Shown in pieces: positions 3-12,664 of a DNA stretch of 12,664 bases. Origin of the DNA: Pseudomonadota bacterium (lineage in GTDB: Bacteria; Bdellovibrionota; FAC87; UBA2466); contig JAYUGC010000092.1 in the NCBI GenBank assembly GCA_043767805.1, forward strand, positions 1 through 12,664. The letters are read 5' to 3'. The position numbers were made by a program, and so were the translations under genes. The notes beneath the pieces were generated by a model. That model was not told where the DNA came from and did not search any database. It worked only from the letters and a program-made list of their open reading frames with translations. The first letter of the stretch is position 1, and each line of letters begins with the position of its first letter.

Positions 3-470
3 TTCTTGCTAGGTCTACGCATGGACGATACGAGCTCGCTGCTTTTTCGTTACCAGGGCACCACGATACCCATCCTGACTACCTCGGCGCCCACCACCAA
101 CGTGAACGCGAGCGCCAAGCTCATGGCCGTCGAGTTCGAGTTCAGCTTCAACCTCAACGATCCGTTCGATAACTTTCACGGGTTTCAGTTTTTCGTGCCG
201 ATCAACCTGCAGGGCTACATCAATTGGCTTACGGGCACTTCGAGCGTGTACATGAATTTCGGCATTTCAGGCGGAGTGGGAGCGGGGGTCCGATACTATA
301 CGGGCGGGCCCGCCATCTTCGATCTGACATTCGTTTATCACTCCGCGATGTCTTTCGGTGACATCGAGCAGGCCGGGACCTCGGACAAAGTAGTCAATGC
401 CGCCGGCAATCCGGTCAAGGGTAGTCCGACCGGGGCCGAGCTCCGCCTAAGTGCGACCATCGTCTTCTGA
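3..470 (+). CDS. C-terminal part of a probable outer-membrane beta-barrel protein (runs off the left edge)
   Basis: Frame is open from the window edge. Amphipathic beta-strand patterns (AVEFEFSFNL, VGAGVRYY, FDLTFVYH) and a final strand ELRLSATIVF ending in Phe, the usual BAM signal. Confidence 0.6.
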   Translation, partial: FLLGLRMDDTSSLLFRYQGTTIPILTTSAPTTNVNASAKLMAVEFEFSFNLNDPFDNFHGFQFFVPINLQGYINWLTGTSSVYMNFGISGGVGAGVRYYTGGPAIFDLTFVYHSAMSFGDIEQAGTSDKVVNAAGNPVKGSPTGAELRLSATIVF

Positions 471-499: not shown

Positions 500-660
500 G
501 AACTCATCTCAAAAGCAGTTCCGTAGCGGTTCGTCGAGCGAAAGGGATCGAGGACGCAGGGAGGGGCGGCCCGGAGGCAGCCCTGAAGGGGCTGTCGAGG
601 ACCGACCCGACTGAGGACGAAGAGCCAGGGCCTTCAGACTGTAAGTTTTTAGATGCGCAT
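500..660. repeat. Structured MITE-like / ncRNA-like intergenic element
   Basis: Imperfect terminal inverted repeat CATCTCAAAA (505-514) / TTTTTAGATG (646-655), 9/10 paired. Internal hairpin GGCAGCCCT-GAA-GGGGCTGTC (576-596), extended by GGGCGGCCC (564-572) / GGACCGACCC (599-608) across a GGA/GA internal loop. Confidence 0.45.
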
Positions 661-816
661 AAATCTTTTCAGCAATGCCCGGTAGAGCCCCTTTTTGCAT
701 CTACGGGTCTCCGGGATTCTTTAGCTCAGGGAGAAGAAACTCGGGTCCGGCCTTATACACTCTTTGCCTATGAGACCACTTTCCCGCTCAACTAACCTTG
801 CAAGGAGCCCCGTCCT

Positions 817-3150
817 TCAGGGAGCGGAGCTCGCCTGCTCCCGCTGCCGACGGGCCAAAAACTCGGGAACCGTTTCCCCCGGAAGTCTCAGGCCTTGCCG
901 CTGGATGTTCGTGAGATGACCATCTACGAACGCTTTCTGCTCAGGCGTCATCGGTATCGTTTGCTCCGTCACCCACTCGGGAAGGACAACCGCGTAGGCG
1001 AGCCCTTCATTCTTGTCCGTGGCGGCGAGCACGGAGTCTCCTCCGCGCCCCGACGCGACTCGAGTCAGGAAAGGAAAATGACTTCGGGGGATGTCCTTCA
1101 TCTTGCCCGTAATCTTTCCTTGATAGCCGTCCCGCTTGAGAATCTCTTTTCCGGCGGCCTGAATGCCGTAATTGCCCTCGCCGCGCTGGATATTCACGAT
1201 GCGCGGATCGTCTTTACCAAGAATGCGCTCGAGCTCCGCTCTCGCCCGGGGGCCATCGGCGATAATGAGGTCGGGTGAGCTCTTTTGATTGAGCACCGCC
1301 GCGATCACTTTATCGCGATAAGTCTGAGTCTGGCTCATCACCTTGGCCCATTCGGTATCGGTCGCGCCGTCCATGCGGAAAGGCACCGTCCGAAGCACCA
1401 AGTAATCGTCTTTCACTCCCACGTCGTGCATCAGACCATTGAGGTACTGCCCGCGCGCACCCGACATGGCCATACCGGTGACGAACTCGTCAACGCCAAC
1501 AGGGTCGGCGAGGATGAGCACCTTGGGATTTTCCAGTCTACCGCGGTAGTGGCCAAAATCCTTAACGTCGGGATGGTTCTTCACGTTGAAGGCAGCGATG
1601 CCGTCCTTCTTCCAGGTTTTGCCGGGCTTCGGCGTGAAGATAGCTTTCAGATCGAGATTGTCTTTCATGAGATTCGCCATCTCGACCGAAGGCCCCGGAT
1701 CGAAATCGTAACGAGACTCTGGACCACGCGCCCGCGTGTTGAACTGCTCCTGAGGATCGATCTCGTCACTCGGCTTGCTGTGCCGGATGGCCTCTAGCGC
1801 TTTCATGTCGAACTCGGCCTTGCCCTTAATGCCATCGATGATGGCATAAGGCTTTCCAGACATTCGTATCGCATTCGACTCACCTTGCATGCGAGTGCCG
1901 GGAGTGCCGAAATGATAGTAAGCGGTGGAGAGGTCCGTTCTCCCGTACTCGAAGGGGTCTCCCGCCTCGAAATGATTCTTCTGACCGGGATCGGCTTCGA
2001 TATGCCACCCATCGGCGACATACTTTTGCAAAGGACTCAGCTGTTTCTGGACCACTTTCCCCGGATCCTTGCCTTCCCTTTTCATGAAGCCCAGGGCAGT
2101 GGGATGAGGAAAGGCGGGAACCAGAAGATGGTTTTCTATTTTGGTGCCGTCCGAAAGGGTGACCCCTTTTAACGAGACGGTCTTTTCCCCGTTGACCTTC
2201 ATCTCAGTCAGTTTATGCCCGCCGAGCTGCGCCGGATGGAGGATGCCGTTGCCGTAAGGTCCGCCTTTTGAAAAAACCATGCGGCTATAAAACCAATCCA
2301 CATTTTTGTCGAGCGCTTCAGTCGCGGCCAGGCGATCCGGGTCGAGTTTGTAATTGAGCTTACGGCCCAAGAACTCGCTGTATAGGTCCTGTCCTTCGGA
2401 CCCGAGAAGCACGCCGAAAGTGTTGTTGCCACCGGCGCTGACTTCTTTCATCTCGGGAACCTGGATGAACTTCATCTCGCGCTCGGATATCTTCGTCGGC
2501 ACCTTCACTCCGACACTTTTCAGAAACGTCGCCGTCGCATCCTGCGCGGCGCCGCCAAAATCCACGAGCATCCGCATCTCGGGATGCTGCTTGATCATGA
2601 TCTCGTAAAATCCTTTGTTCCATGCCGCATGGGGACCTTCATGGGTCATCGTCCAGAGATGATTGTCGACGATGGTCGTGCGACGAATCTCGCGCTTGCC
2701 ATCTTTCTCATAAATGTAAGGAGCGTCTCGAACGCCGTACTGACCGAAGATCGTATAGGGAAAGGCATTAAAGAAGCCGGCGCTCTCGTGCATCCCCAAG
2801 TAATTAACGATTTTCTGCGCGTCTCCGCCGAAGGCGGCCGTCGCCGTATGAAAGGACGACTCGGCTTTGTGAACGCCGTCCTGGCCCATGAAGAGCCCTT
2901 GTTGGCGGCCATCTGAGAGCCGGTAAAAAAGCGGACCAAAAGCCGCGCGAAATTTTTGCAGGCCCAGCATGAGCGGAGACATCGTGGGCAAAGGAGGCAA
3001 CGAGGCAATGTGGTCGATGAAATCGCGGCCGTTCTTGGTCTTCGGATCGGGACCATGATCGAACGGCTGCCTGAGTGCCGCGTAGTCACAGCCAAGGGAG
3101 ACTCGGCTTAGGAAAAAAACGAATGTGAAAGCGCGAAACTTCCAGCCCAC
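817..3150 (-). CDS. Putative exported protein with two tandem uracil-DNA glycosylase-like (UDG superfamily) repeats
   Basis: 777-aa ORF, GTG start with AGGGGG upstream. Leader MGWKFRAFTFVFFLSRVSLG followed by the only Cys. Repeat 1: FDHGP...FGPLFYR...LFMGQDG...FFNAFPY...MLVDFG...FPHPT. Repeat 2: FDPGP...HYRGRLENPKVLILADPVGVDEFVTGMAMSGARGQYLNGLMHDVGV...YLVLRTVP...LIIADG, which resembles the family-4 UDG N-terminal block. Confidence 0.7.
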   Translation of the reverse strand: MGWKFRAFTFVFFLSRVSLGCDYAALRQPFDHGPDPKTKNGRDFIDHIASLPPLPTMSPLMLGLQKFRAAFGPLFYRLSDGRQQGLFMGQDGVHKAESSFHTATAAFGGDAQKIVNYLGMHESAGFFNAFPYTIFGQYGVRDAPYIYEKDGKREIRRTTIVDNHLWTMTHEGPHAAWNKGFYEIMIKQHPEMRMLVDFGGAAQDATATFLKSVGVKVPTKISEREMKFIQVPEMKEVSAGGNNTFGVLLGSEGQDLYSEFLGRKLNYKLDPDRLAATEALDKNVDWFYSRMVFSKGGPYGNGILHPAQLGGHKLTEMKVNGEKTVSLKGVTLSDGTKIENHLLVPAFPHPTALGFMKREGKDPGKVVQKQLSPLQKYVADGWHIEADPGQKNHFEAGDPFEYGRTDLSTAYYHFGTPGTRMQGESNAIRMSGKPYAIIDGIKGKAEFDMKALEAIRHSKPSDEIDPQEQFNTRARGPESRYDFDPGPSVEMANLMKDNLDLKAIFTPKPGKTWKKDGIAAFNVKNHPDVKDFGHYRGRLENPKVLILADPVGVDEFVTGMAMSGARGQYLNGLMHDVGVKDDYLVLRTVPFRMDGATDTEWAKVMSQTQTYRDKVIAAVLNQKSSPDLIIADGPRARAELERILGKDDPRIVNIQRGEGNYGIQAAGKEILKRDGYQGKITGKMKDIPRSHFPFLTRVASGRGGDSVLAATDKNEGLAYAVVLPEWVTEQTIPMTPEQKAFVDGHLTNIQRQGLRLPGETVPEFLARRQREQASSAP

Positions 3151-3325
3151 CCCGACCCCCTAATGCGAAGCCTAAGTTTACGCGAAGCACTATTGGTGAG
3201 AAGATGAATTCCCGAGGCGAACGCGTGGTCCCGCAGAATACAGATCCGCCGGGTTTACCGAGTAAAGAAACCTCCCTCACGGCGGGTTCGAAGGGGCCAC
3301 TAGGGCGCTGTAGTAGCCTAGCCAA

Positions 3326-3567
3326 ATGAGAGCTATCTTTCTGATCCTGGCCTTAAGCGGCCACGCCGAAAATTCAGCCATCGAACGCGCCAAGCGGCCA
3401 GCGTGGCGCGCGGAGCGCAGCGCCCAAATTCAAAAACTCGCACCGCAATTAGAGGCCTTAAACCATTGTGAAGCTGACGCCGATTGCGTGAACCTGAAAA
3501 TGAACGACCTATGGTGCCCGGATTCTGCGGCCGGCGGCATTCTGGTTCACCGCAAGGAACAAAAGAA
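3326..3567 (+). pseudogene. Small secreted Cys-rich protein, 3'-truncated at an ISL3 fragment
   Basis: Signal peptide MRAIFLILALSGHA and a CEADADC...WCP motif. After ...HRKEQK the sequence becomes ISL3 DNA read out of frame (the ORF track runs on to 3736). Confidence 0.6.
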
Positions 3568-3697
3568 GAAGAGCATTCGGATTCAGAAACTTTCAAAATT
3601 ATCGATTACGGGTGCTTGCTCACTGCGGGTGGGATGGGATATTCGGAATCCGAAATTAATCAACCAGGGACCGTTCCCCCGTTGGTGGAGTAGAGCC
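3568..3697 (+). mobile_element. ISL3-family right-end fragment (130 bp), copy 1
   Basis: 128/130 identical to 9080-9209. Encodes the transposase tail RAFGFRNFQNYRLRVLAHCG and ends in GTAGAGCC (reverse complement GGCTCTAC, typical ISL3 terminus). Confidence 0.9.
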
Positions 3698-3755
3698 CAA
3701 GCTCGGTCGCGACTCTCTTCACATTGGATCTACTAACTGAAATGGTTTGAAAATT

Positions 3756-3769
3756 TGGAGCGGGTGACG
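3756..3769 (-). other. tRNA-Gly-like 3'-end remnant (possible att core)
   Basis: Reverse complement CGTCACCCGCTCCA resembles the T-stem 3' side, acceptor 3' strand, U discriminator and CCA of bacterial tRNA-Gly. AT-rich flank on the CCA side; no complete cloverleaf. Confidence 0.45.
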
Positions 3770-3786
3770 CCATAGTGGGCGAACCA

Positions 3787-3960
3787 ATGGTCGTGGCGCG
3801 CGAGCACCCGGCTCAGTGGGTTAAGGCTACGGTTGACCGGGACGAGCTGGCAAGACTTCGTCTGGTCGAGAAGTGGCCTCTGAAACGTCTCTAGGCTCAC
3901 TTCCGATGCGGGAGATCAAAGATTAGTAAGAAAGTTCAGCTTCATAGAAACGGTGGATAG
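3787..3960 (+). pseudogene. Small helix-turn-helix protein with an in-frame stop
   Basis: Manual translation: MVVAREHPAQWVKATVDRDELARLRLVEKWPLKRL*AHFRCGRSKISKKVQLHRNGG*. The HTH-like pattern spans the TAG at 3892-3894. Not in the ORF track. Confidence 0.45.
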
Positions 3961-4086
3961 GAGATTCAAAGCGGTGATTCCTGCGCCGGTGAGGCGACAG
4001 AGTCGACGTTATGTGACCCTTCAGAGACCGTTCCCTTGCGAAAAGGGCGCGCGGATGGAGCCGGGGGTGGCGGGGATCACTCTACG

Positions 4087-4230
4087 GGTGAGGTTCTTCA
4101 CGCCTTTTTCGACGAGCGCGGCGATGCAATTTTCGGGAATACCGCAAAGGCCGAAACCCCCGATTGTCAGCGTGGCGCCATCGAAAACATCCGCGACCGC
4201 TTCGGCCGCATCCTTTACGAGCTTATTCAT
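4087..4230 (-). pseudogene. scoA: 3-oxoacid CoA-transferase subunit A, N-terminal 48 codons only
   Basis: [48 protein letters not shown] has the [11 protein letters not shown] signature. The expected xSNN continuation is absent and the frame runs into unrelated sequence to a stop at 4021. Confidence 0.85.
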
Positions 4231-4328
4231 GTATATTTTTTCACCCCGGCAACACTCCCACGTAGGTCATAAGGGTCGCATGAGTATCCCACCTTTAGAG
4301 GGCAGAAAAGTGGGCGCGAGCCGCGCAA

Positions 4329-4994
4329 TCAGTAGTCGCTGGAGTAGAGTTTTCCAAACTTGTTGAGATGGCTCTTGCTGATGGGCACCGTCTGAACGGA
4401 GAAGTCCTCCTGGGTCAGGGAGGACGCGGTGATGGTAACGTCCCTCGACAGGGGTTCGGACCCCTCCGCCCAAACCCGTAGAGTGTGCTTTCCCGGGGGG
4501 ATGTCTTTCAGAGTGAAACTTCCGTCCCGGCTCGGGACCGTGAAGCGGCGGTTTTTCAAAACGAGAATGGAGCCGATCATCTCGGGGTGGATGTTGCAAA
4601 AGAGCCGGATGAGCCCGGGGGTTTTGAAAGTGAACGTTTTCTCCTCGGGCCCGCGAAACGCGCCCAGGTCGAAGGGCTGTGGCTTGGAGAGAGACCAGAC
4701 GTTGTGATGAATGGAATCCTGATTGCGGAAAGTCACCGTTTCGCCGGCGGTGAGCGTCAGGACGCGGGGCTGGAAACGTTTGTCCTTTTGATCCAGATAG
4801 ACGATTCGTTTCTTGGGCGGAGGCCCCTCGTCGAAACCCGTGACGTAGACGACGGAGTTTTCATGGGAGGCGCAGGGTTTCCACTGATGTTCGTTCTGGG
4901 CCTTTTCGTTGAGCGTTACCTTGCCGCGGATCGTTCCACCCTGTGCGGTGATTGCAATCAGGAGGGAAACAAGGGAAAGTAACTTCACACTCAT
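4329..4994 (-). CDS. Periplasmic cupredoxin (type-1 copper) with carboxypeptidase-regulatory-like beta-sandwich
   Basis: Signal peptide MSVKLLSLVSLLIAITAQG. FQPRVLTLTAGETVTFRNQD, HHNVWS and FCNIHPEM supply His/Cys/His/Met ligands. GTIRGKV and DGSFTLKDIPPGKHTLRVW are carboxypeptidase-regulatory-like motifs. Confidence 0.88.
   Translation of the reverse strand: MSVKLLSLVSLLIAITAQGGTIRGKVTLNEKAQNEHQWKPCASHENSVVYVTGFDEGPPPKKRIVYLDQKDKRFQPRVLTLTAGETVTFRNQDSIHHNVWSLSKPQPFDLGAFRGPEEKTFTFKTPGLIRLFCNIHPEMIGSILVLKNRRFTVPSRDGSFTLKDIPPGKHTLRVWAEGSEPLSRDVTITASSLTQEDFSVQTVPISKSHLNKFGKLYSSDY
4948..4961. promoter_or_regulatory. Candidate CRP/FNR-family operator
   Basis: Perfect 12-bp palindrome TGATTGCAATCA (4949-4960). 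GTGAT-N4-ATCAG is 8/10 to the FNR consensus TTGAT-N4-ATCAA, centred ~80 bp upstream of the cyclase ATG, but lies inside the cupredoxin coding sequence. Confidence 0.25.
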
Positions 4995-5033
4995 TCGGGT
5001 TTACCAAGGCAAATGCAGCGCGGTTGATGAAAC

Positions 5034-7049
5034 ATGGCGCCCGTTTTCTCAAAGTTTCAAAACAAACTACTCGCGGCTTTCGCCCTTCTGGTCGCTCTGA
5101 TTATCCTGCCGGTACTTCTGTTTGTAAATGCGGCTATAGACCGGGCCAGTGAATCGCGCATTGAGGAGAGTCTGCGCACGGCCCAGGAGGTGTTTGCCAG
5201 CTTCCTGGACACCCGGCGGAAAGCCTACTCCGACAGTGCCGACATCCTCATCAATTCCCAGCCCTCTTTGAGGGCGCTGCTCGGCAGCTCCAACGACGAT
5301 GAGGAAAACCTGTTCGGCTCGGAAAATGAAGAGTCCGGTACCTCCGCGGGCCGCCAGGAGACGCACGATGCGCTATTTTCAACGGTGGAGGGCCTGGGGA
5401 TATTTCGTAATGCCGGCCTCTTTTTGATGACCGACGCCCGGGGTGTGTTGCTCTTTTCCAAAGCGGATCCGAAGGCCTTCGGGGTTAGTCTGGCCTCCCT
5501 GCCCATTGTGCGCCAGGGCCTGGAGGGAAAAGAGGGCCACACGCTCTGGGGCTCCGAGGATCCCGCCATTCGGCCCCAAGTGGCCCTTCCCAAAGCGAAC
5601 TCCCCGACCATTTACGAAGTGTTCTTCAAGCCGATTGCCTTTGGGGGACAGGTAAAGGGACTGCTCGCCATCGGTTTTCCCATTACTCTTTCCGAAATCG
5701 AACGCATTCGGGATATCACCCGTTCGGAAATTGCTTTTTTGTCCAAAGGCACCATCTACGGTAACTCCAGTGCGGTGCCGCTTCCCCTCGGCGGCCTGTC
5801 GGTCTTGAATCTGGTGCGGTTCGACCACGCCAGTGAAGCCTTCATCGGACTTCGTTCGGTTCTCAACGACAGCCTGGGTGAGCCGGCCGGGGCCTCGCTC
5901 ATTTACCGTTCGAAGACCCGGGAGGCCGCTCTCTTCCGTCGGCTCAAGGTGGTTCTGAATCTCATTGCGGCCCTGGCAATGCTGGGCGCCGTGCTCATTG
6001 CGCTTCCGCTGAGCCGCGGCGTTACGCGTTCGATCCGCGACCTGATCCGAGGCGCAAAAGCGGTGCGGGCCGGGGACCTGACAACCACGGTCACCGTGGC
6101 GTCAGCGGACGAATTTGCGCTTCTGGCCGACTCCTTCAACGAAATGACCCGGGGCCTTCGGGAAAAGGAACAGATTAAATCCACTTTCCGGCGCTACGTG
6201 AGTCCGAACGTGCTCAACGCGCTTTTGGCCGATGGCGCCGTGCCCAAATTGGGAGGGGACAGCCGCCGACTGACGATCTACTTTGCCGATATCGCCGGGT
6301 TCACCCGGATATCGGAGAGGCTTAAGCCCGAGGAGACCATCGAATTTTTGAATGACTATCTGTCGCGGGCTACACAGTGCATCGAGTCGGCCGGCGGAAT
6401 CGTCGATAAATACATCGGCGACGCGGTCATGGCGTACTGGCTGGCCACGGGGGATTCGCCCATGGACCGCGAGCAGGCCTGCCGCGCCGCTGGCAATCAT
6501 TCGGCCACACTCCTGGCTTTGAAGGAAAAGTGGGGAGGCCGCATCGGGCCCGAAGGGGTAGGGGTCCGCGTCGGGATTCATTCGGGGCAGGCGATCATGG
6601 GCAACATCGGCTGCGATTCGCGCATGGACTACACTTTGGTCGGAGACGACGTAAACACGGCGGCACGGCTCGAAAGTTTGAATAAAAGTTACGGCACCTC
6701 CATCCTGGTGACCGAGAGCGTGACGGCGGGGCTTCAGGCCAAGTTCCTCTTTCGCGAAGTGGACCAGGTTCGCCTGCAGGGAAAGGCCCACGTGGTTCGC
6801 GTTTTCGAGCTCATGAGCGAAAGAGAGGCCGCCACCACCGGGCAGATGGCGCGGGCCGAGCGGTTTTCCGGGGGTCTGGGGCTTTACCGGCAGCGGGAAT
6901 TCGAAAAAGCGCGCCGTTGCTTCGGGGATCTCGGCCGGGACTTTCCCGAGGACCGGGCGGCGCTCATTTTTGCCGACCGCTGCGCGCTCTACGCCACCGC
7001 CTCGCCGCCCGCCAAGTGGGACGGAGTCTTTCAGATGCAGACGAAATAA
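5034..7049 (+). CDS. Membrane-bound class III adenylate cyclase (TM - periplasmic sensor - TM - HAMP - cyclase - TPR-like tail)
   Basis: Two hydrophobic helices. HAMP (AKAVRAGDL...DEFALLADSFNEM). Cyclase motifs FADIAGFT, DKYIGDAVMA, GIHSG, DYTLVGDDVNTAARLE, with the Lys/Asp pair that indicates ATP specificity. C-terminal WDGV...K tail. Confidence 0.93.
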   Translation: MAPVFSKFQNKLLAAFALLVALIILPVLLFVNAAIDRASESRIEESLRTAQEVFASFLDTRRKAYSDSADILINSQPSLRALLGSSNDDEENLFGSENEESGTSAGRQETHDALFSTVEGLGIFRNAGLFLMTDARGVLLFSKADPKAFGVSLASLPIVRQGLEGKEGHTLWGSEDPAIRPQVALPKANSPTIYEVFFKPIAFGGQVKGLLAIGFPITLSEIERIRDITRSEIAFLSKGTIYGNSSAVPLPLGGLSVLNLVRFDHASEAFIGLRSVLNDSLGEPAGASLIYRSKTREAALFRRLKVVLNLIAALAMLGAVLIALPLSRGVTRSIRDLIRGAKAVRAGDLTTTVTVASADEFALLADSFNEMTRGLREKEQIKSTFRRYVSPNVLNALLADGAVPKLGGDSRRLTIYFADIAGFTRISERLKPEETIEFLNDYLSRATQCIESAGGIVDKYIGDAVMAYWLATGDSPMDREQACRAAGNHSATLLALKEKWGGRIGPEGVGVRVGIHSGQAIMGNIGCDSRMDYTLVGDDVNTAARLESLNKSYGTSILVTESVTAGLQAKFLFREVDQVRLQGKAHVVRVFELMSEREAATTGQMARAERFSGGLGLYRQREFEKARRCFGDLGRDFPEDRAALIFADRCALYATASPPAKWDGVFQMQTK

Positions 7050-7089
7050 CCATTGAGCCTTCTCCACGGCGTAAACTAGAATTCTCTCC

Positions 7090-8424
7090 GTGCAACGACA
7101 ATTATTACGCGCAGCGGTATTTCTTCTTTTTTTTACCGCCCTCGGCCCGGGGGCAATGGCCGGCGAAGACGATCTGTTCGGGGCCGGTCCCTCCGCGCTT
7201 GCGCTAAAAGACGACTGGAATCGAGCCGGCCTTCGGATCGTTCCCTCCGGAACGCTCGATTTGCGTTTCGTTCACGCCGGTACGGCCATCGGTTGGGAAT
7301 ATGGGGGACCGGGGCTTTCGCGCTATGGTTCCACCCCGCCGGGGGCGCCGGGCACGAGGGAATCCGGCGTCCGGGGTGTCACTTTCCGGATGCCCCAGAT
7401 CGGCCTGGATCTCGATTTTCTTTTGCAGGACACTCCTTTGCTCCACCTGCAGCTGGGCTATGACGATCACCCGGAGCTGACGGGGCGAGTGGGCTCCATC
7501 GGAGTCGTGAAGGCTTTCGCCCACCTTCCCACCCTCGGACCCATTGCGCTCAGAGCGGGGGTGATGATTCCACCGGTCTCTCTCGAACACCCGGGCCCCG
7601 CCTGGAGCACGCGCTATACGCTGACTCCCTCGGCCATCAATACCTGGGTCGGCGAGGAACTTCGAGTGGTCGGACTGGAGGGCTCGGGGGCAATGGCGTT
7701 TGGTAAGGGGATGCGCGGACGGGTGGTGGTGGGCCTCTTCTCGCACAACGATACGGCAGGCGCCATTCTGTCGTGGCGGGGCTGGGGGTTTCACGATTAT
7801 CAGGTCAAGCTGGGGGATCGTCTCCGAACCTCGGGGGACACCGATAGCGCGGTATTATCGCCGACCGTCAGCACGGCTCCCTTCGAGGAATTGGATGGCA
7901 GGCCCGGCGCCTATGCCAAATTGGGTGTCGACGTGGGCGACAGCCTGAAACTCGAGGTATTTGTCTCTCACAATTTCGCAAACCCCCGTGCATTTGAACA
8001 CGTTACGTTTGGGAAAGCTTACGGCTGGCGGACCACTTTCGTAAACGCGGCTGCCCAGTACCGCCCTCTTTTGGGGCTCACGTTCCTGGCTCAGGCGCTT
8101 TACGGAACGACCCTCATGGGCGCTTCCGCCGTCGACAACTCCTTTGCTTCCGCCTTTCTCCTCGCCTCCTACCAGTGGGGCCGCCACCGGTTGAGCTTTC
8201 GCTACGACTGGTTTCAGGTGCTGGATCGGGACGCCAACGCCGGTGATCTTAATGACCAGCGAGGCAACGCCCAGGTGGTGGCCTACTTTTTCTCCCTCGA
8301 CGAAAACCACACGCTGGGAGTGGAGTACCTCAGACCCGTGGCCACCCGGGTCGGCAATACCGGATTGGCCCGGGTGGACGCTTTTGACGATCTCGTTCAA
8401 GGGGCCTACCGGCTGAGTTTTTGA
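7090..8424 (+). CDS. Uncharacterised outer-membrane beta-barrel protein
   Basis: GTG start, signal peptide ending AMA, many amphipathic strands (HRLSFRYDWF, HTLGVEY), C-terminal QGAYRLSF. Starts 40 bp after the cyclase on the same strand. Confidence 0.8.
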   Translation: MQRQLLRAAVFLLFFTALGPGAMAGEDDLFGAGPSALALKDDWNRAGLRIVPSGTLDLRFVHAGTAIGWEYGGPGLSRYGSTPPGAPGTRESGVRGVTFRMPQIGLDLDFLLQDTPLLHLQLGYDDHPELTGRVGSIGVVKAFAHLPTLGPIALRAGVMIPPVSLEHPGPAWSTRYTLTPSAINTWVGEELRVVGLEGSGAMAFGKGMRGRVVVGLFSHNDTAGAILSWRGWGFHDYQVKLGDRLRTSGDTDSAVLSPTVSTAPFEELDGRPGAYAKLGVDVGDSLKLEVFVSHNFANPRAFEHVTFGKAYGWRTTFVNAAAQYRPLLGLTFLAQALYGTTLMGASAVDNSFASAFLLASYQWGRHRLSFRYDWFQVLDRDANAGDLNDQRGNAQVVAYFFSLDENHTLGVEYLRPVATRVGNTGLARVDAFDDLVQGAYRLSF

Positions 8425-8435
8425 GGGTGAAGGCG

Positions 8436-8555
8436 ATGGCACTGAAAGAGACGGATCTGGAGATAGTCCACCTGAAGGGCAGCGGGCCCGGTGGACAGAA
8501 CCGCAACAAGCGCCAGACCGGCATTCGCATTACCCACCTGTTATCCCACTCGTAG
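8436..8555 (+). pseudogene. GGQ-motif peptidyl-tRNA hydrolase (class I release-factor / ArfB-like domain), truncated
   Basis: Manual translation MALKETDLEIVHLKGSGPGGQNRNKRQTGIRITHL|LSHS* has the SGPGGQxxNK...IRITHL signature. Similarity stops at 8540, where PTG would normally follow. Not in the ORF track. Confidence 0.85.
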
Positions 8556-8580
8556 TTTTATCGTCGAGACCCGAATTAAT

Positions 8581-9171
8581 GTCATGGATCTTTCGGAAAC
8601 CTATCGCTCCATCGCCAAGAAACACTTCCCCGAAGCCATGATCGTAGCCGATAGGTTCCACGTCATTCGGCTCGTAAACCACAGTTTTCTAAAAACCTGG
8701 CAACAACTCGACCCCAACGGTCGCAAAAATCGTGGGCTACTAAGCTTGATGCGACGGCACGAAAAGAATCTCGATCCCGACCAAAAGCTCCGCCTAAAGC
8801 AGTATCTAAGCCATTGCCCCGCTCTCGAACGGGTCTATGAATTCAAACAAAAACTTTGCATGCTGCTGCTGACCAGACAGCGCCAAAAGACCGCTTTGAG
8901 GCCAGCAATCTACCAGTTGGTCGAAATGATCGAACAGCTCAAGCTGACCGCTTTCGAACCCCTTAGAACCCTGGGTCTGACTCTGGAAAGGTGGCAGGAA
9001 GAAATAGGCCGGATGCTCCGCTTCTCCAAAAGCAACGGCATCACAGAGGGATTCCACAACAAAATGGAAATGATCTCCCGAAGAGCATTCGGATTCAGAA
9101 ACTTTCAAAACTATCGATTACGGGTGCTTGCTCACTGCGGGTGGGATGGGATATTCGGAATCCGAAATTAA
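8581..9171 (+). pseudogene. ISL3-family transposase, C-terminal half only
   Basis: VMDLSETYRS, ADRFHV and SNGITEGFHNKMEMISRRAFGFRNFQNYRLR motifs. The N-terminal zinc-finger/HTH region and first catalytic Asp block are missing; the first ~30 aa of the track ORF 8491 are junction sequence. Confidence 0.9.
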
Positions 9172-9209
9172 CCAACCAGGGACCGTTCCCCCGTTGGTGG
9201 AGTAGAGCC
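8581..9209 (+). mobile_element. 5'-truncated ISL3 element with intact right end, copy 2 (left boundary approximate)
   Basis: Transposase fragment plus 38 bp ending in GTAGAGCC. The right end is defined by where identity with 3568-3697 stops. Visibly more AT-rich than flanking genes. Confidence 0.88.
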
Positions 9210-9214
9210 AAGAA

Positions 9215-9291
9215 TGGTCGGGCTGGTCAGATTTGAACTGACGACCTCTTCGTCCCGAACGAAGCGCGCTAGCCAACTGCGCTACAGCCCG
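9215..9291 (-). tRNA. tRNA-Pro (anticodon CGG)
   Basis: 77 nt, CGGGCTGTAGCGCAGTTGGCTAGCGCGCTTCGTTCGGGACGAAGAGGTCGTCAGTTCAAATCTGACCAGCCCGACCA. Acceptor CGGGCTG/CAGCCCG, anticodon arm CTTCG-TTCGGGA-CGAAG, T loop TTCAAAT, encoded CCA. Confidence 0.97.
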
Positions 9292-9965
9292 TCTTGGCAA
9301 ACCAGAAGCTTGGGATCCGCGGCCCGAGAAAAACTCAGTTCCGCTTCGGCTTTGAGTGACCTCAAAGTCGCTTCCAAACCTCGTCGTATCGACTCGAACG
9401 CTTCGGGCGTTACGTCTTTCGGAACCGTTACCGGAACTCCATAGACAATCACGCACTTAGCGAACGGATTCGGAAGGTAACACCGATTCCAAGCCCTTTT
9501 AAAGACAAATCTGCGGCTCGCTGCCGCACCGCCCGGAATAATCGGCAATCCGGTTTCCTGGGCGAGTTTCAAAATCCCTGGCTTCACCTCATAGATGGGA
9601 CCGCGCGGTCCATCCACCGCGAGTGAGGCTTCGCGTCCGCTCCCGGAAACCGCGTCTATCAACCCTTTCAGGCCAGCGGCGCCTCCTTTGCTCGAGGATC
9701 CACGCACCACGAAAAAGCCCAAGGCCTCGAGGAGCCGCTTCATCAACTCGCCGTCCCGGCTTCGGCTAGCCATCACCGCCATGTCGCCATCGCGGTAAGC
9801 GCCGAGGAGAAGTAGTTCGTCCCCATGCCAATGCGCGTAAAGAGACGGACGAAGGGCGGGGCGGCGCACATGCGCGTAGCGGTACGTGAGGCTAAGGAGC
9901 CGATAGGCCCAATGCAGCACAAAAACGGACAGGGTCTCTTTGATTCGCCGAAAAAATTCCACCAA
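9282..9965 (-). CDS. DUF374 / lysophospholipid acyltransferase-family protein
   Basis: Motifs HWHG, MASRSRDGE, VRGSSSKGG, AVDGPRGP, W..CYLPNPF. The true start may be GTG at 9962 (GAGG 7 nt upstream). Confidence 0.88.
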   Translation of the reverse strand: MVEFFRRIKETLSVFVLHWAYRLLSLTYRYAHVRRPALRPSLYAHWHGDELLLLGAYRDGDMAVMASRSRDGELMKRLLEALGFFVVRGSSSKGGAAGLKGLIDAVSGSGREASLAVDGPRGPIYEVKPGILKLAQETGLPIIPGGAAASRRFVFKRAWNRCYLPNPFAKCVIVYGVPVTVPKDVTPEAFESIRRGLEATLRSLKAEAELSFSRAADPKLLVCQDGL

Positions 9966-10009
9966 TTAGCCTCAAAGGAGGCCCTCATTAAGCCGATAGG
10001 TAATCGATC

Positions 10010-11068
10010 ATGCAACCCAAAAAGGCTCAGTCCCAGCTTGTGGAAAATCAGGGTCTTCCGAAGGATCCTTTCCTCGCCGAGCGCGATCTTCGCGACTTTT
10101 GTTTTCAGGCGGGACAGGAGCTCGGACAATTACTCGGGGCCATCCTCGGGGAATTGAACTACGCGCTCTCGACGGCAAATCCGTCGGTGCGAGATAGGTC
10201 CATGGCCATCGCCCTCTCCGCCGCGGAAAAGGCGCTGCATCTCTCGGCCAACCTTCGTTACTACAGCGGCCCTGGCGGAATGGACGCCCGGCCGACCGAT
10301 CTCGCGCAGCTGCTGCTCGACACGGTGGAATTACTCGAAGGCGAGCTCCAGCAACGAGGCCTCCGGCTCACGGCACTCACCGAAACACCGGCAACCGCCG
10401 CTCTCGACGCCGCGACCCTTAGGCATCTTTTGACCAATTTGATTTTGAAAATGGCCGAATCTCTCGTCGGTGGCGGCGAGATCTCCATGACGCTCCGTCG
10501 TACGGACGCGGTTTACGAACTTTCCCTCATCGGCCGTCCCATCGGCGTTATGTCCCAGCCGCCCATGGCGTTAAACGGCCGTGGTCCCGGACCTGCCTCG
10601 CCTTACACCATCGCGCGCAGTCTCCTCGAAGCGCAGGGCGGAACGCTCAACACGTCGCATACGCCCGAAGGGTATCCGCAAGTCGTGCTCGCGTTGCCAT
10701 ACGATCCGAAGCTGAAAACGCCCGAGAATTTCGAAAACCGCCGGCAGAACCGTCGCGTGCGCGTTCAGTTCACGGGCGAAGTCATTTTCCCCGGTCACCC
10801 GCCGCTCGCCATGGAAGTCTGCATCTTGAGCGAAAAAGGCGCGTACCTCGTCTTCCCCAAATCCGCCGAGTTCCGCCCCATCAAGCCGAACACCAAGGGA
10901 TCGTTGAAGATTTTCTATTTCGACGGACAGGCGGTGGAGATCGAGGAGTTCCGCATCGCGAGCCTCGACCCCAAAGGCCCGACGGCCGGCGTAGGCGTGG
11001 AATTCTTGCGCATCGATACCCGGGCCAGAAGCGTGCTCTCTGCCTTGGTCAAGAGCCACACGGGCTGA
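10010..11068 (+). CDS. Degenerate histidine-kinase-like (DHp + HATPase remnant) protein fused to a C-terminal PilZ domain
   Basis: AGQELGQLLGAILG resembles an H-box without His. Also PTDLAQLL, LRHLLTNLI (N-box-like), GGGEISMT and IARSLLEAQGGTL. PilZ: ENRRQNRRV, ILSEKGAYL, GVGVEF. Confidence 0.75.
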   Translation: MQPKKAQSQLVENQGLPKDPFLAERDLRDFCFQAGQELGQLLGAILGELNYALSTANPSVRDRSMAIALSAAEKALHLSANLRYYSGPGGMDARPTDLAQLLLDTVELLEGELQQRGLRLTALTETPATAALDAATLRHLLTNLILKMAESLVGGGEISMTLRRTDAVYELSLIGRPIGVMSQPPMALNGRGPGPASPYTIARSLLEAQGGTLNTSHTPEGYPQVVLALPYDPKLKTPENFENRRQNRRVRVQFTGEVIFPGHPPLAMEVCILSEKGAYLVFPKSAEFRPIKPNTKGSLKIFYFDGQAVEIEEFRIASLDPKGPTAGVGVEFLRIDTRARSVLSALVKSHTG

Positions 11069-11134
11069 TCTCCGGCATTCACGAAATTGTCCTTTACGCC
11101 CACGACACCCGTCGGGCTACACTGATAAATAGCC

Positions 11135-12178
11135 ATGAAGATCTGTTTCGTAGTCCGGTCGGCCTACTACCAGCGCCCCGCCTACACGACGTCGCACCTC
11201 GCTTTCGAGGCGTGGCGGCGCGGCCATACGGTCGTATTCGCGAACATCAATAGCCTCACGTACCGCGATCCCGGAAAAATCACCGCCATGGTCACGGCCG
11301 CGGGCCCCGGCCATTTTAAGGACACCACGACTTATCTCGAAGCGTTGCAGGCGGAGGAAAATCGCCGCTTCGAAGTGAACCTCACGGATTTCGACGTCGT
11401 CTTTTTGCGCTATAACCCGCATGGCGATACAGAAATCGACGCGACGAAGACGAACCCCGGCCTGGAGTTCGGGCGTCTCCTGAAACTCCACGGCGTTATG
11501 GTCTTAAACGATCCAGGCGGCCTCGCCAAAGCGTCGAGCAAAATGTACCTCTCCTCGTTCCCCGAGGAAATCCGCGCGCAGACGCTCATCACCCGAAGCG
11601 CGGTGAAGATCAAAGATTTCGTGAAGCGACTGCGTAAGCCCGTCATCTTAAAGCCGCTTACCGGCTTCGGCGGGCAGGACGTGTTCTTCATCAAGGATTG
11701 GCGCGACATCAACATCAATCAGATCATCGCGACGGTCAGTAAGAACGGTTACGTCATCGCCCAGGAATTTTTGCCCGCCGTAAAGCAAGGCGACAAACGC
11801 CTGCTCCTTTTGAACGGCGAGCCCATTTTCGTCGGTAAACAAGTGGCGATGTACCGGCGCATGTCGCCCAAAGGCGAAATCCGCAGCAACATGCACATCG
11901 GCGGCGTCCGCCGCACGGCGAAGTTCTCGCGGGTCGAAGCGCGCATCGCGGAAGTCGTGCAGCCGAAGCTCATCGCAGACGGCCTGTATTTCGTCGGCGT
12001 CGACATCGTCGGCGACAAAGTTCTCGAGATAAACTCTTTCTGCCCCGGCGGCATCCACAACATCAACGAGCTATACGGAATCAACGTGGGGGAAGCGGTC
12101 ATCCGCGATCTGGAAAAACGAGTCCAAGTGCGAGGCCCCATCCTCGGCACCACCCCTCCGATCCGTTCGGTAATCTAA
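11135..12178 (+). CDS. gshB: Glutathione synthetase-like ATP-grasp ligase (prokaryotic GshB family)
   Basis: DFDVVFLRYNP, VLNDPGGL, ILKPLTGFGGQDVF, QEFLPAVKQGDKRLLLLNGEP, RSNMHIGG, GLYFVGVDIVGDKVLEIN. Confidence 0.75.
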   Translation: MKICFVVRSAYYQRPAYTTSHLAFEAWRRGHTVVFANINSLTYRDPGKITAMVTAAGPGHFKDTTTYLEALQAEENRRFEVNLTDFDVVFLRYNPHGDTEIDATKTNPGLEFGRLLKLHGVMVLNDPGGLAKASSKMYLSSFPEEIRAQTLITRSAVKIKDFVKRLRKPVILKPLTGFGGQDVFFIKDWRDININQIIATVSKNGYVIAQEFLPAVKQGDKRLLLLNGEPIFVGKQVAMYRRMSPKGEIRSNMHIGGVRRTAKFSRVEARIAEVVQPKLIADGLYFVGVDIVGDKVLEINSFCPGGIHNINELYGINVGEAVIRDLEKRVQVRGPILGTTPPIRSVI

Positions 12179-12184
12179 AAACTC

Positions 12185-12664
12185 ATGGCAAAAGACATCC
12201 TGTTTCTTTGCGGCGGGCGGTCCGACGAGCACGAGATTTCTCTCATTTCCGCGAAATGCGCGCTCGATGCGCTCGATAGAAATCTCTTCCGGCCGATAGT
12301 CGTCGGAATCTCGAAAAAGGGCGGCGTCTGGCATCTGTGCGATGAGAAGACCTTCTTCCAAGGTGAGTTTCGCGCCGACAAAATCCGGTTGAACGAAGAC
12401 ACTCCGCAAGTTTCCTTGGCCCCCTACTCTTCCAAAGATGGAAAGGGCCAGCTCTTTTGCAACGGCAAGACGATTACCTTCGACGGCGTTTTCCCGATTC
12501 TCCACGGCCAATTCGGCGAGGACGGCACGCTTCAAGGCATGCTCGATCTCGTCGGCGTTCCCTACGTGGGATCCAACTGCGGCGCTTCCTGGATCTGCAT
12601 GGATAAAGTGCTCACCAAGAACCTGTGCGCGAATGCCGGTATCCCCGTCTCGGATTACGTTTGG
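12185..12664 (+). CDS. ddl: D-alanine--D-alanine ligase, N-terminal part (runs off the right edge)
   Basis: Manual translation MAKDILFLCGGRSDEHEISLISA...DGVFPILHGQFGEDGTLQGMLDLVGVPYVGS...CMDKVLTK. Missing from the ORF track because there is no stop in the window. Confidence 0.95.
   Translation, partial: MAKDILFLCGGRSDEHEISLISAKCALDALDRNLFRPIVVGISKKGGVWHLCDEKTFFQGEFRADKIRLNEDTPQVSLAPYSSKDGKGQLFCNGKTITFDGVFPILHGQFGEDGTLQGMLDLVGVPYVGSNCGASWICMDKVLTKNLCANAGIPVSDYVW

Follow-up and report, generated by a model that had tools for sequence, protein, structure and literature searches.

The DNA analysed here, hereafter the window, is a complete contig of 12,664 bp (C92; JAYUGC010000092.1) from a 4.5-Mb bacterial genome in 204 contigs, and it carries three adjacent genes for a cupredoxin-like protein, a sensor adenylate cyclase and a porin-fold barrel. 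The question raised by this locus is whether the three genes form one signalling system across the cell envelope or are neighbours for other reasons. The reading favoured here, which is held with about even confidence, is that the locus is the cyclic AMP (cAMP)-output version of a widespread envelope sensing module with the cupredoxin as periplasmic co-sensor. The observations on which it is built are the integrity of the genes, the folds and domains of their products, the invariance of the copper ligands, the genomic linkage of the families and the exchange of output domains.

Co-occurrence of cupredoxin, sensor and porin

Homologous loci were collected in two sets. A barrel-alignment scan of one genome per species (retrieval motif N[STA]W[VI]GEE[LIV][RK]) gave at least 593 loci, of which the best 80 were kept (genome set). 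A second scan, of metagenomes, used the 12 closest cupredoxins and recovered no fewer than 590 loci, from which again the best 80, many of them short, were kept (metagenome set). Searches with single proteins of the window found a cupredoxin homologue in 63 of the 80 barrel loci. Family profiles identified both a cupredoxin and a sensor domain in 43 barrel loci, a cupredoxin only in 20, a sensor only in 5, each interrupted on the side of the cupredoxin by the end of the contig, and neither in 12. When flanks of at least 4 kb were required on either side, 58 barrel loci remained, and the corresponding numbers were 34, 19, 0 and 5, with a cupredoxin present in 53. A preliminary description of this DNA, which proposed that the three products work together, had named co-occurrence across genomes beforehand as a test, and with all three families in 34 of the 58 full-flank loci the co-occurrence was far beyond chance and extended across phyla. 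The record titles of the barrel loci included Pseudomonadota, SAR324, Bdellovibrionales, Desulfobacterales, Acidobacteriota, Krumholzibacteria and Marinimicrobia. Seven orders or orientations of the three genes were observed, the commonest being cupredoxin-sensor-barrel (28 loci), and the divergent arrangement of the window recurred in a Bdellovibrionales metagenome-assembled genome (MAG; locus L003).

The metagenome set showed the same pairing with a different porin. The sensor-domain profile matched a neighbour of the cupredoxin in 46 of the 80 loci, and a second porin-fold family was found directly upstream of the cupredoxin in 37 (including L087, L093, L099, L117, L122, L126, L137, L141-L144, L152 and L159), where it takes the place of the window's barrel family. 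Among the 22 metagenome loci with flanks of at least 2.5 kb, 10 had a sensor and the second porin, 7 a sensor only, 3 a porin only and 2 neither. Overall, the recurring unit is a porin, a cupredoxin and a sensor, with at least two porin families, and the cupredoxin is its constant member and hub.

The periplasmic domains of the neighbouring sensors aligned with each other, and Pfam dCache_3 was matched at E ≤1e-5 by 27 of 35 GGDEF-EAL sensors and by those of L033, L035 and L051. The domains on the cytoplasmic output side differed. The 52 large neighbours in the genome set comprised 35 GGDEF-EAL proteins, nearly all with a HAMP match, 5 HAMP-histidine kinases, 3 cyclases, one of which also had a Ser/Thr kinase, 2 HAMP-MCP proteins with no match to the sensor profile, and 7 proteins that were unrelated or without a match. 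The 37 sensors of the metagenome set comprised 27 Ser/Thr kinases, 4 cyclases, 4 histidine kinases and 2 PP2C proteins; in 4 of the Ser/Thr kinases the kinase was N-terminal and no HAMP was present. A quick maximum-likelihood tree of 72 sensor domains required 9 changes among the six output labels, the minimum being 5. The cyclase label needed 4 changes, of which the starred branches forced at least 2, and the window together with L003, L088 and L106 formed a starred four-row cyclase clade. The output domain is therefore exchangeable on one conserved periplasmic sensor domain. Species of Kordiimonas, Nitrospirillum, Sphingobium and Pseudoalteromonas are examples of culturable bacteria with the GGDEF-EAL version. 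The GGDEF/EAL neighbours named in the preliminary description are real, and its suggestion of a swappable output holds for GGDEF-EAL, histidine kinase, cyclase, cyclase with Ser/Thr kinase, Ser/Thr kinase and PP2C.

The HAMP-MCP genes downstream of the cupredoxin-barrel pair in Pseudoalteromonas (L040, L067) were considered as module sensors and rejected, having no match to the sensor-domain profile. In one SAR324 locus (L002, 3215-6025, minus strand) the cupredoxin gene was followed on the same strand by genes for a sigma factor of the extracytoplasmic function type, an OmpR-type response regulator and a HAMP histidine kinase whose periplasmic region is shorter; in this locus the barrel was divergent.

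The three proteins and their setting

The coordinates of the features identified in the window are as in Table 1. The best solved relative of the cyclase domain (residues 409-597) was CyaB of Pseudomonas aeruginosa (3r5g, E 5e-29). The three catalytic blocks, FxDIxGFT, DK(F/Y)(I/V)GD and DYT..G..VN.A.RLES, matched CyaB, with identical residues at the aligned positions for metal, base and transition state. The individual roles of these residues, a metal-binding Asp pair, a base-specifying Lys together with a Thr or Asp, and a transition-state Asn and Arg, are presumed here. The predicted output of the enzyme is cAMP. Against a profile of the module's sensor domains from which the window and L003 had been left out, the periplasmic domain scored 53.7 bits, in two pieces (residues 5-84 and 192-329) on either side of a divergent, unaligned middle (85-190), and it is probably a divergent member of the module's dCache_3-like sensor family.

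The cupredoxin protein was identified by profile matches and by its ligands. The type-1 copper ligands H97, C133, H136 and M139 were invariant in 71 of 71 and in 57 of 57 aligned family members, and likewise D93, F108, N134 and the C-terminal Y221. The protein would accordingly be expected from its residues to bind copper. Its match to PF00127 was marginal (21.6 bits against a cut-off of 21.2) and that to PF13473 was below cut-off (21.8 bits against 27), while the family profile matched the cupredoxin domains of amicyanin, pseudoazurin and NirK in the PDB. It is not a member of the amicyanin, plastocyanin or pseudoazurin equivalogs of NCBIfam (19-22 bits against cut-offs of 88-110), and only 3 of its 57 relatives reached E ≤0.001 against NCBIfam models; no curated family of NCBIfam covers it. 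The closest subgroup shares a conserved C-terminal tail, H-x-N-K-F-G-K-P/L-Y. At E ≤1e-30 the family had 3,170 representatives at 50% identity, multi-repeat proteins included, and all 11 of the longer members scanned were tandem cupredoxin/CarboxypepD_reg repeats. Database labels of the members were 'methylamine utilization protein', 'plastocyanin' and 'hypothetical protein', and the first of these had no backing from any gene context seen here. In the ESM Atlas the clusters were labelled only 'hypothetical' or 'porin family'.

The 444-aa barrel protein had a signal-peptide-like N-terminus if started at the GTG at 7090, a C-terminal Phe and no cysteine, and so has no c-type haem site. Its AlphaFold2 model (mean predicted local distance difference test score, pLDDT, 87.8) had 17 strand elements, and a Foldseek search of this model matched OmpT, OprP/OprO, chitoporin and PorB (E 3e-13 to 1e-9, TMt 0.55-0.71) as well as DcaP, which identifies it as a porin-fold outer-membrane barrel. 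No Pfam or NCBIfam family was matched by the window's protein; among 50 barrel relatives, Porin_O_P, BBP2 and Porin_4 were matched by 3, 2 and 3, with a best E of 2.5e-6. The most conserved part of the family is the segment of residues 161-192 with an invariant acidic and aromatic loop motif that includes E166, W172, E189 and E190, and by its place in the predicted secondary structure it may correspond to the constriction loop of general porins. With this model, the signal-like start of the cupredoxin and the two hydrophobic segments of the cyclase, the outer-membrane, periplasmic and inner-membrane compartments assigned in the preliminary description agree, and the full His/Cys/His/Met ligand set and the catalytic motifs that it had read in the cupredoxin and the cyclase were recovered.

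The second porin-fold family (about 380-530 aa) is also uncurated, and its sequences end in Arg-Phe. Its model showed two long N-terminal helices followed by a barrel, with a modest mean pLDDT of 66, and the best PDB match was DcaP (E 9e-16, TMt 0.74). An hhalign comparison of the second family with the window's barrel family gave 55% probability over 311 columns. In the Rhodospirillaceae MAGs L009, L011 and L006, a tandem duplicate of the barrel gene was followed by a gene for an AI-2E family transporter (354-357 aa). This assignment was confirmed by Pfam in L009, and a same-sized ORF (open reading frame) was found at the same position in L006, L011, L037, L052, L056 and L061.

Genes for redox proteins were found beside some relatives of the cupredoxin. 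Multihaem cytochrome c genes were situated between the cupredoxin and the sensor in three loci (L113:6597-7895, L135:1052-2506 and L146:1663-2874), and a gene for a MauG-like di-haem peroxidase (L111:999-3056) was situated two genes upstream of the cupredoxin in another. The genome of the window also contains a second member of the cupredoxin/CarboxypepD_reg family (G000:C77:29024-29746, minus strand; the same as L172:7025-7747, minus strand), in which His/Cys/His/Met were kept and the C-terminal tail was absent. This paralogue is just upstream of genes for CtaA (COX15), CtaB (UbiA), an ABC-2 transporter and SCO1/SenC, and downstream of genes for an NAD synthase, an anti-sigma-like zf-HC2 protein and a product with a weak, below-cut-off sigma-70-like match. 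The cupredoxin profile matched 23 of 40 related genomes with scores typical of this second type.

Table 1. Features of the window, with residue numbers of the encoded proteins where these apply
Feature	Residues	Position	Strand	Basis or remark
Cupredoxin-like gene	221 aa	4329-4994	-	Open, full length
Signal-like segment	N-terminus of cupredoxin protein		-	Sequence
Cupredoxin domain	62-145	4560-4811	-	Profile matches
CarboxypepD_reg-like beta-sandwich	150-200	4395-4547	-	Profile matches
Conserved C-terminal tail	Ends in Tyr (Y221)		-	Family alignment
Type-1 Cu ligand	H97	4704-4706	-	
Type-1 Cu ligand	C133	4596-4598	-	C-x2-H-x2-M
Type-1 Cu ligand	H136	4587-4589	-	C-x2-H-x2-M
Type-1 Cu ligand	M139	4578-4580	-	C-x2-H-x2-M
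Sensor adenylate cyclase gene	671 aa	5034-7049	+	Open, full length
Transmembrane segment 1 (TM1)	about 12-35		+	Hydrophobic segment
Periplasmic domain, about 267 residues	36-302	5139-5939	+	Between two hydrophobic segments
Transmembrane segment 2 (TM2)	about 303-326		+	Hydrophobic segment
HAMP	326-377	6009-6164	+	46.9 bits
Class III cyclase (Guanylate_cyc)	412-588	6267-6797	+	81.8 bits, cut-off 21.9
C-terminal tail of cyclase protein	597-671		+	No role assigned
Porin-fold barrel gene	444 aa	7090-8424	+	Open, full length
Family-defining barrel motif	161-192	7570-7665	+	Between strands 5 and 6 of model
Terminator-like hairpin		4314-4326	-	Directly past cupredoxin stop codon; consensus scan only (8 sites, 5.5 expected)
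Truncated CoA-transferase gene	N-terminal 69 codons	4021-4230	-	CoA_trans profile positions 2-46 of 217
Truncated RF-1/ArfB-like gene	First 39 codons only	8436-8555	+	Cut by insertion sequence (IS) fragment; RF-1 profile positions 6-40 of 116, 32.3 bits, E 1e-07, below 35-bit cut-off
ISL3 transposase fragment		8491-9171 (element to 9209)	+	Profile positions 59-240 of 240, without 1-58
130-nucleotide direct repeat, left copy		3568-3697	+	Solo remnant of ISL3
130-nucleotide direct repeat, right copy		9080-9209	+	End of ISL3 fragment

The three genes are separated by gaps of 39 bp (4995-5033) and 40 bp (7050-7089). The preliminary description of three intact and closely packed genes stands in this respect; it was silent on strand, and to it must be added that the cupredoxin gene is divergent from the cyclase gene, so that only the cyclase and barrel genes form a co-directional pair. 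The broken genes that it reported on both flanks were confirmed as pieces of a CoA-transferase gene, an RF-1-like gene and an ISL3 transposase gene. The 130-nucleotide direct repeat on both sides of the trio (copies 98% identical) is the 3' end of the ISL3 transposase gene together with the IS end. Its left copy is situated inside a chimeric ORF of 136 aa (3326-3736), and no further ISL3 transposase was found among the ORFs of the genome. A single-protein search found the barrel in 1 of 41 related genomes, and in a sample of 301 genomes from the phylum the barrel family profile gave a single match, in both cases in the genome of the window itself. The three genes look like an island gained by horizontal transfer and set between ISL3 remnants, since the barrel was absent from the other kin sampled and both flanks hold broken genes and pieces of insertion sequences. 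The G+C content of the trio was 0.60 compared to 0.579 for the genome. A tblastx comparison of the flanks with all fetched loci gave no matches. The stretch was present in four DNA runs from sediment metagenomes of one study, one of which may be its source, and no RNA run was listed.

Other parts of the window were annotated as follows. Parts of 3150-4330 matched further contigs of the same genome (C29, C14, C72, C123, C115 and C187), and the region is a patchwork of repeated elements. An ORF of 777 aa with a lipoprotein-like start (Leu-Gly-Cys) and no Pfam family was found at 817-3150 (minus strand), and the C-terminal part of a protein that ends in Phe like outer-membrane barrels, cut at the contig end and without a Pfam match, at 3-470 (plus strand). 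Beyond the IS fragment, 9282-12664 contained ordinary genes for a DUF374 protein (minus strand), a 352-aa protein with a C-terminal PilZ domain, a glutathione synthetase and the start of a D-Ala-D-Ala ligase.

Possible role of the cupredoxin and rival explanations

In the proposed mechanism, the exported type-1 copper cupredoxin would be the signal-perceiving partner of the periplasmic dCache_3-like domain of the cyclase. The state of its copper site would alter how the cupredoxin sits on the sensor domain, and this change would be passed through TM2 and HAMP to the activity of the CyaB-like class III cyclase and hence to the cAMP level. The porin-fold barrel could be a dedicated outer-membrane channel for the stimulus, a small redox-active solute or copper, or else a dock for the cupredoxin. 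Contact between the proteins, the stimulus and the direction of regulation are what we infer here from the observations above. The cupredoxin is regarded as an accessory co-sensor because its pairing with the sensor domain persists through at least five outputs, a reversed kinase topology and two porin families or none. Most likely this state would be Cu(I)/Cu(II), so that the cupredoxin would report electron flow or the redox poise of the periplasm; copper occupancy is the less likely alternative. Redox state is favoured over copper load because the side contexts contain redox enzymes and because the site here is complete, invariant and of the type-1 kind with an axial Met, which is buried, holds copper with high affinity and serves electron transfer.

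A more specific form of this proposal, which is put forward tentatively and is itself rather doubtful, is that the blue-copper protein is a redox reporter whose Cu(I)/Cu(II) change switches its docking on the dCache_3-like domain, supplied by an outer-membrane channel of its own and read out through multiple outputs. A possible switch would be a redox-linked flip of the exposed C-terminal His ligand, as is known in short-loop cupredoxins such as amicyanin. If true, it would provide a general input for electron flow or oxidant level outside the cytoplasm of diderm bacteria, wired repeatedly to cAMP, cyclic di-GMP (c-di-GMP), histidine-kinase, Ser/Thr-kinase and PP2C outputs.

Several points weigh against the co-sensor reading. 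The window's cyclase had no match to Pfam dCache_3 (PF14827) at E ≤0.1, its periplasmic domain has an acidic insert and a replacement of the D[FY]GFR motif of most relatives, and its membership in the sensor family is suggested by the two-piece profile match given above. Each set was restricted to the 80 loci that best match proteins of the window, which makes it no random sample, and many of its rows are kin. Genes were called heuristically by the longest ORF. Because two of the profiles (A2 and A3) were derived from loci of the genome set, the only counts independent of this training are those from single proteins and from the metagenome set. The window's barrel family was found in none of the 80 cupredoxin-seeded metagenome loci, so it is not essential to the pairing of cupredoxin and sensor, and because 19 of the 58 full-flank barrel loci had a cupredoxin-barrel pair without a sensor within 7 kb, that pair has or can have a role for which no adjacent sensor is required. 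No fusion of the cupredoxin to a sensor or barrel was found among the 11 longer family members scanned. Finally, reversible sensing of copper load is disfavoured by the tight binding of copper in type-1 sites.

The 19 sensor-less pairs, whose neighbours are variable and unrelated, keep the main rival alive: cupredoxin and porin would be a self-standing unit for copper handling or outside electron transfer, the sensor would bind a small ligand of its own, and adjacency would reflect use under the same condition. dCache domains usually bind small ligands directly, the paralogue of the cupredoxin adjoins CtaA, CtaB and SCO1 (cytochrome-oxidase and copper-chaperone genes), and multihaem cytochromes were found nearby in three loci. 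This explanation is nevertheless considered improbable, if the least so of the three rivals. The cupredoxin-sensor pairing survives unrelated outputs, an N-terminal kinase without HAMP and the change or absence of the porin, as would be expected if the cupredoxin were a partner of the sensor domain itself. In addition, the sensors act through enzymes of second-messenger metabolism or through kinases or phosphatases of proteins rather than through dedicated regulators of adjacent genes, and the barrel, having no cysteine, has no c-type haem site.

The invariant copper ligands and the copper chaperone SCO1 next to the paralogue would also fit a module that senses copper availability, in which copper enters through the porin, the cupredoxin signals the periplasmic copper load by being apo or holo, and the sensor responds to this. 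A type-1 site with an axial Met, however, would make a poor sensor of reversible occupancy, and no copper-resistance or copper-efflux genes were found among the neighbours scanned, so that this explanation appears quite unlikely. It does have a precedent for copper input to c-di-GMP enzymes, since a report on P. aeruginosa describes the periplasmic CHASE4 domain of such an enzyme as likely to recognise copper (PMC13277305). Far less credible again is the view that the trio is an inert passenger of IS-mediated transfer, with meaningless adjacency and no working role. The IS remnants, the two truncated genes on the flanks and the absence of the barrel profile from the 300 other genomes sampled from the phylum would be in line with it. 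The genes, however, are intact with conserved catalytic and ligand residues, the same divergent arrangement was found in the Bdellovibrionales MAG, and the G+C content of the trio is near that of the genome.

Relation to known systems

No study of a cupredoxin-porin-sensor module was found in the full-text literature, subscription journals being outside its coverage, and within that literature the earlier remark that no characterised example was known was borne out. The report on the CHASE4 domain cited above came nearest. To our knowledge there is no earlier case of a signalling role for a type-1 copper protein, and the module, if the reading is true, would be the first. The cupredoxin family would feed the majority of the main signalling outputs of bacteria. 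For most c-di-GMP enzymes and most receptor Ser/Thr kinases of bacteria no stimulus is known, and a copper-protein co-sensor, if true, would name one input for hundreds of them at once. The cyclase version would provide an easy readout of the module's stimulus, namely cAMP in an Escherichia coli cya- host.

The characterised systems are compared here as generally known. YfiBNR (TpbB) of P. aeruginosa and E. coli likewise consists of three proteins across the outer membrane, periplasm and inner membrane, and a periplasmic protein controls a HAMP-containing second-messenger enzyme through its periplasmic domain. In contrast to the present trio, YfiB is a Pal/OmpA-like lipoprotein and not a porin, YfiR is no cupredoxin and binds no copper, and YfiN, a PAS-HAMP-GGDEF protein, makes c-di-GMP. 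The models of YfiN and of the YfiR-associated kinase matched the HAMP region only (13-32 bits against cut-offs of 194-325), and barrel and cupredoxin have folds other than those of YfiB and YfiR, so the trio is not YfiBNR, and the resemblance would be one of logic only. LuxP-LuxQ and NspS-MbaA are similar in that a periplasmic partner encoded by an adjacent gene is read by a tandem-PAS or dCache-type domain, and MbaA is a HAMP-GGDEF-EAL protein like most members of the module. LuxP and NspS have periplasmic binding-protein folds for autoinducer-2 (AI-2) and polyamines, whereas the partner here is a type-1 cupredoxin that also carries a CarboxypepD_reg-like domain and often comes with a dedicated porin.

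For the individual proteins, amicyanin and pseudoazurin (TIGR02657, TIGR02375, PF00127) share the His/Cys/His/Met set, the C-x2-H-x2-M spacing is that of amicyanin, and the cupredoxin family profile found amicyanin at E 2e-5 and pseudoazurin at E 1e-4 in the PDB. However, the cupredoxin of the module scored 21.9 bits against a cut-off of 110, has an extra beta-sandwich and a tail with an invariant Tyr, and is found in a signalling context, unlike amicyanin and pseudoazurin with methylamine dehydrogenase or nitrite reductase. CyaB resembles the cyclase in its catalytic domain but has a membrane-embedded sensor module, compared to the large periplasmic domain and HAMP here. The porins OmpT, OprP/OprO, chitoporin and DcaP are also beta-barrels with an inward loop, while identity was about 9-14% and the window's barrel has a loop motif of its own. 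Cyc2-rusticyanin and PcoB-PcoA likewise combine an outer-membrane barrel with a periplasmic cupredoxin-type copper protein, but Cyc2 has haem, for which the window's barrel has no cysteine, PcoA is a multicopper oxidase of three domains, neither pair has a link to a sensor, and no sequence relation to either was found. Overall, dCache-type domains that read a periplasmic partner have been described already, whereas no blue-copper partner with its own porin is known, and the cyclase output of this locus is a further variant of the module.

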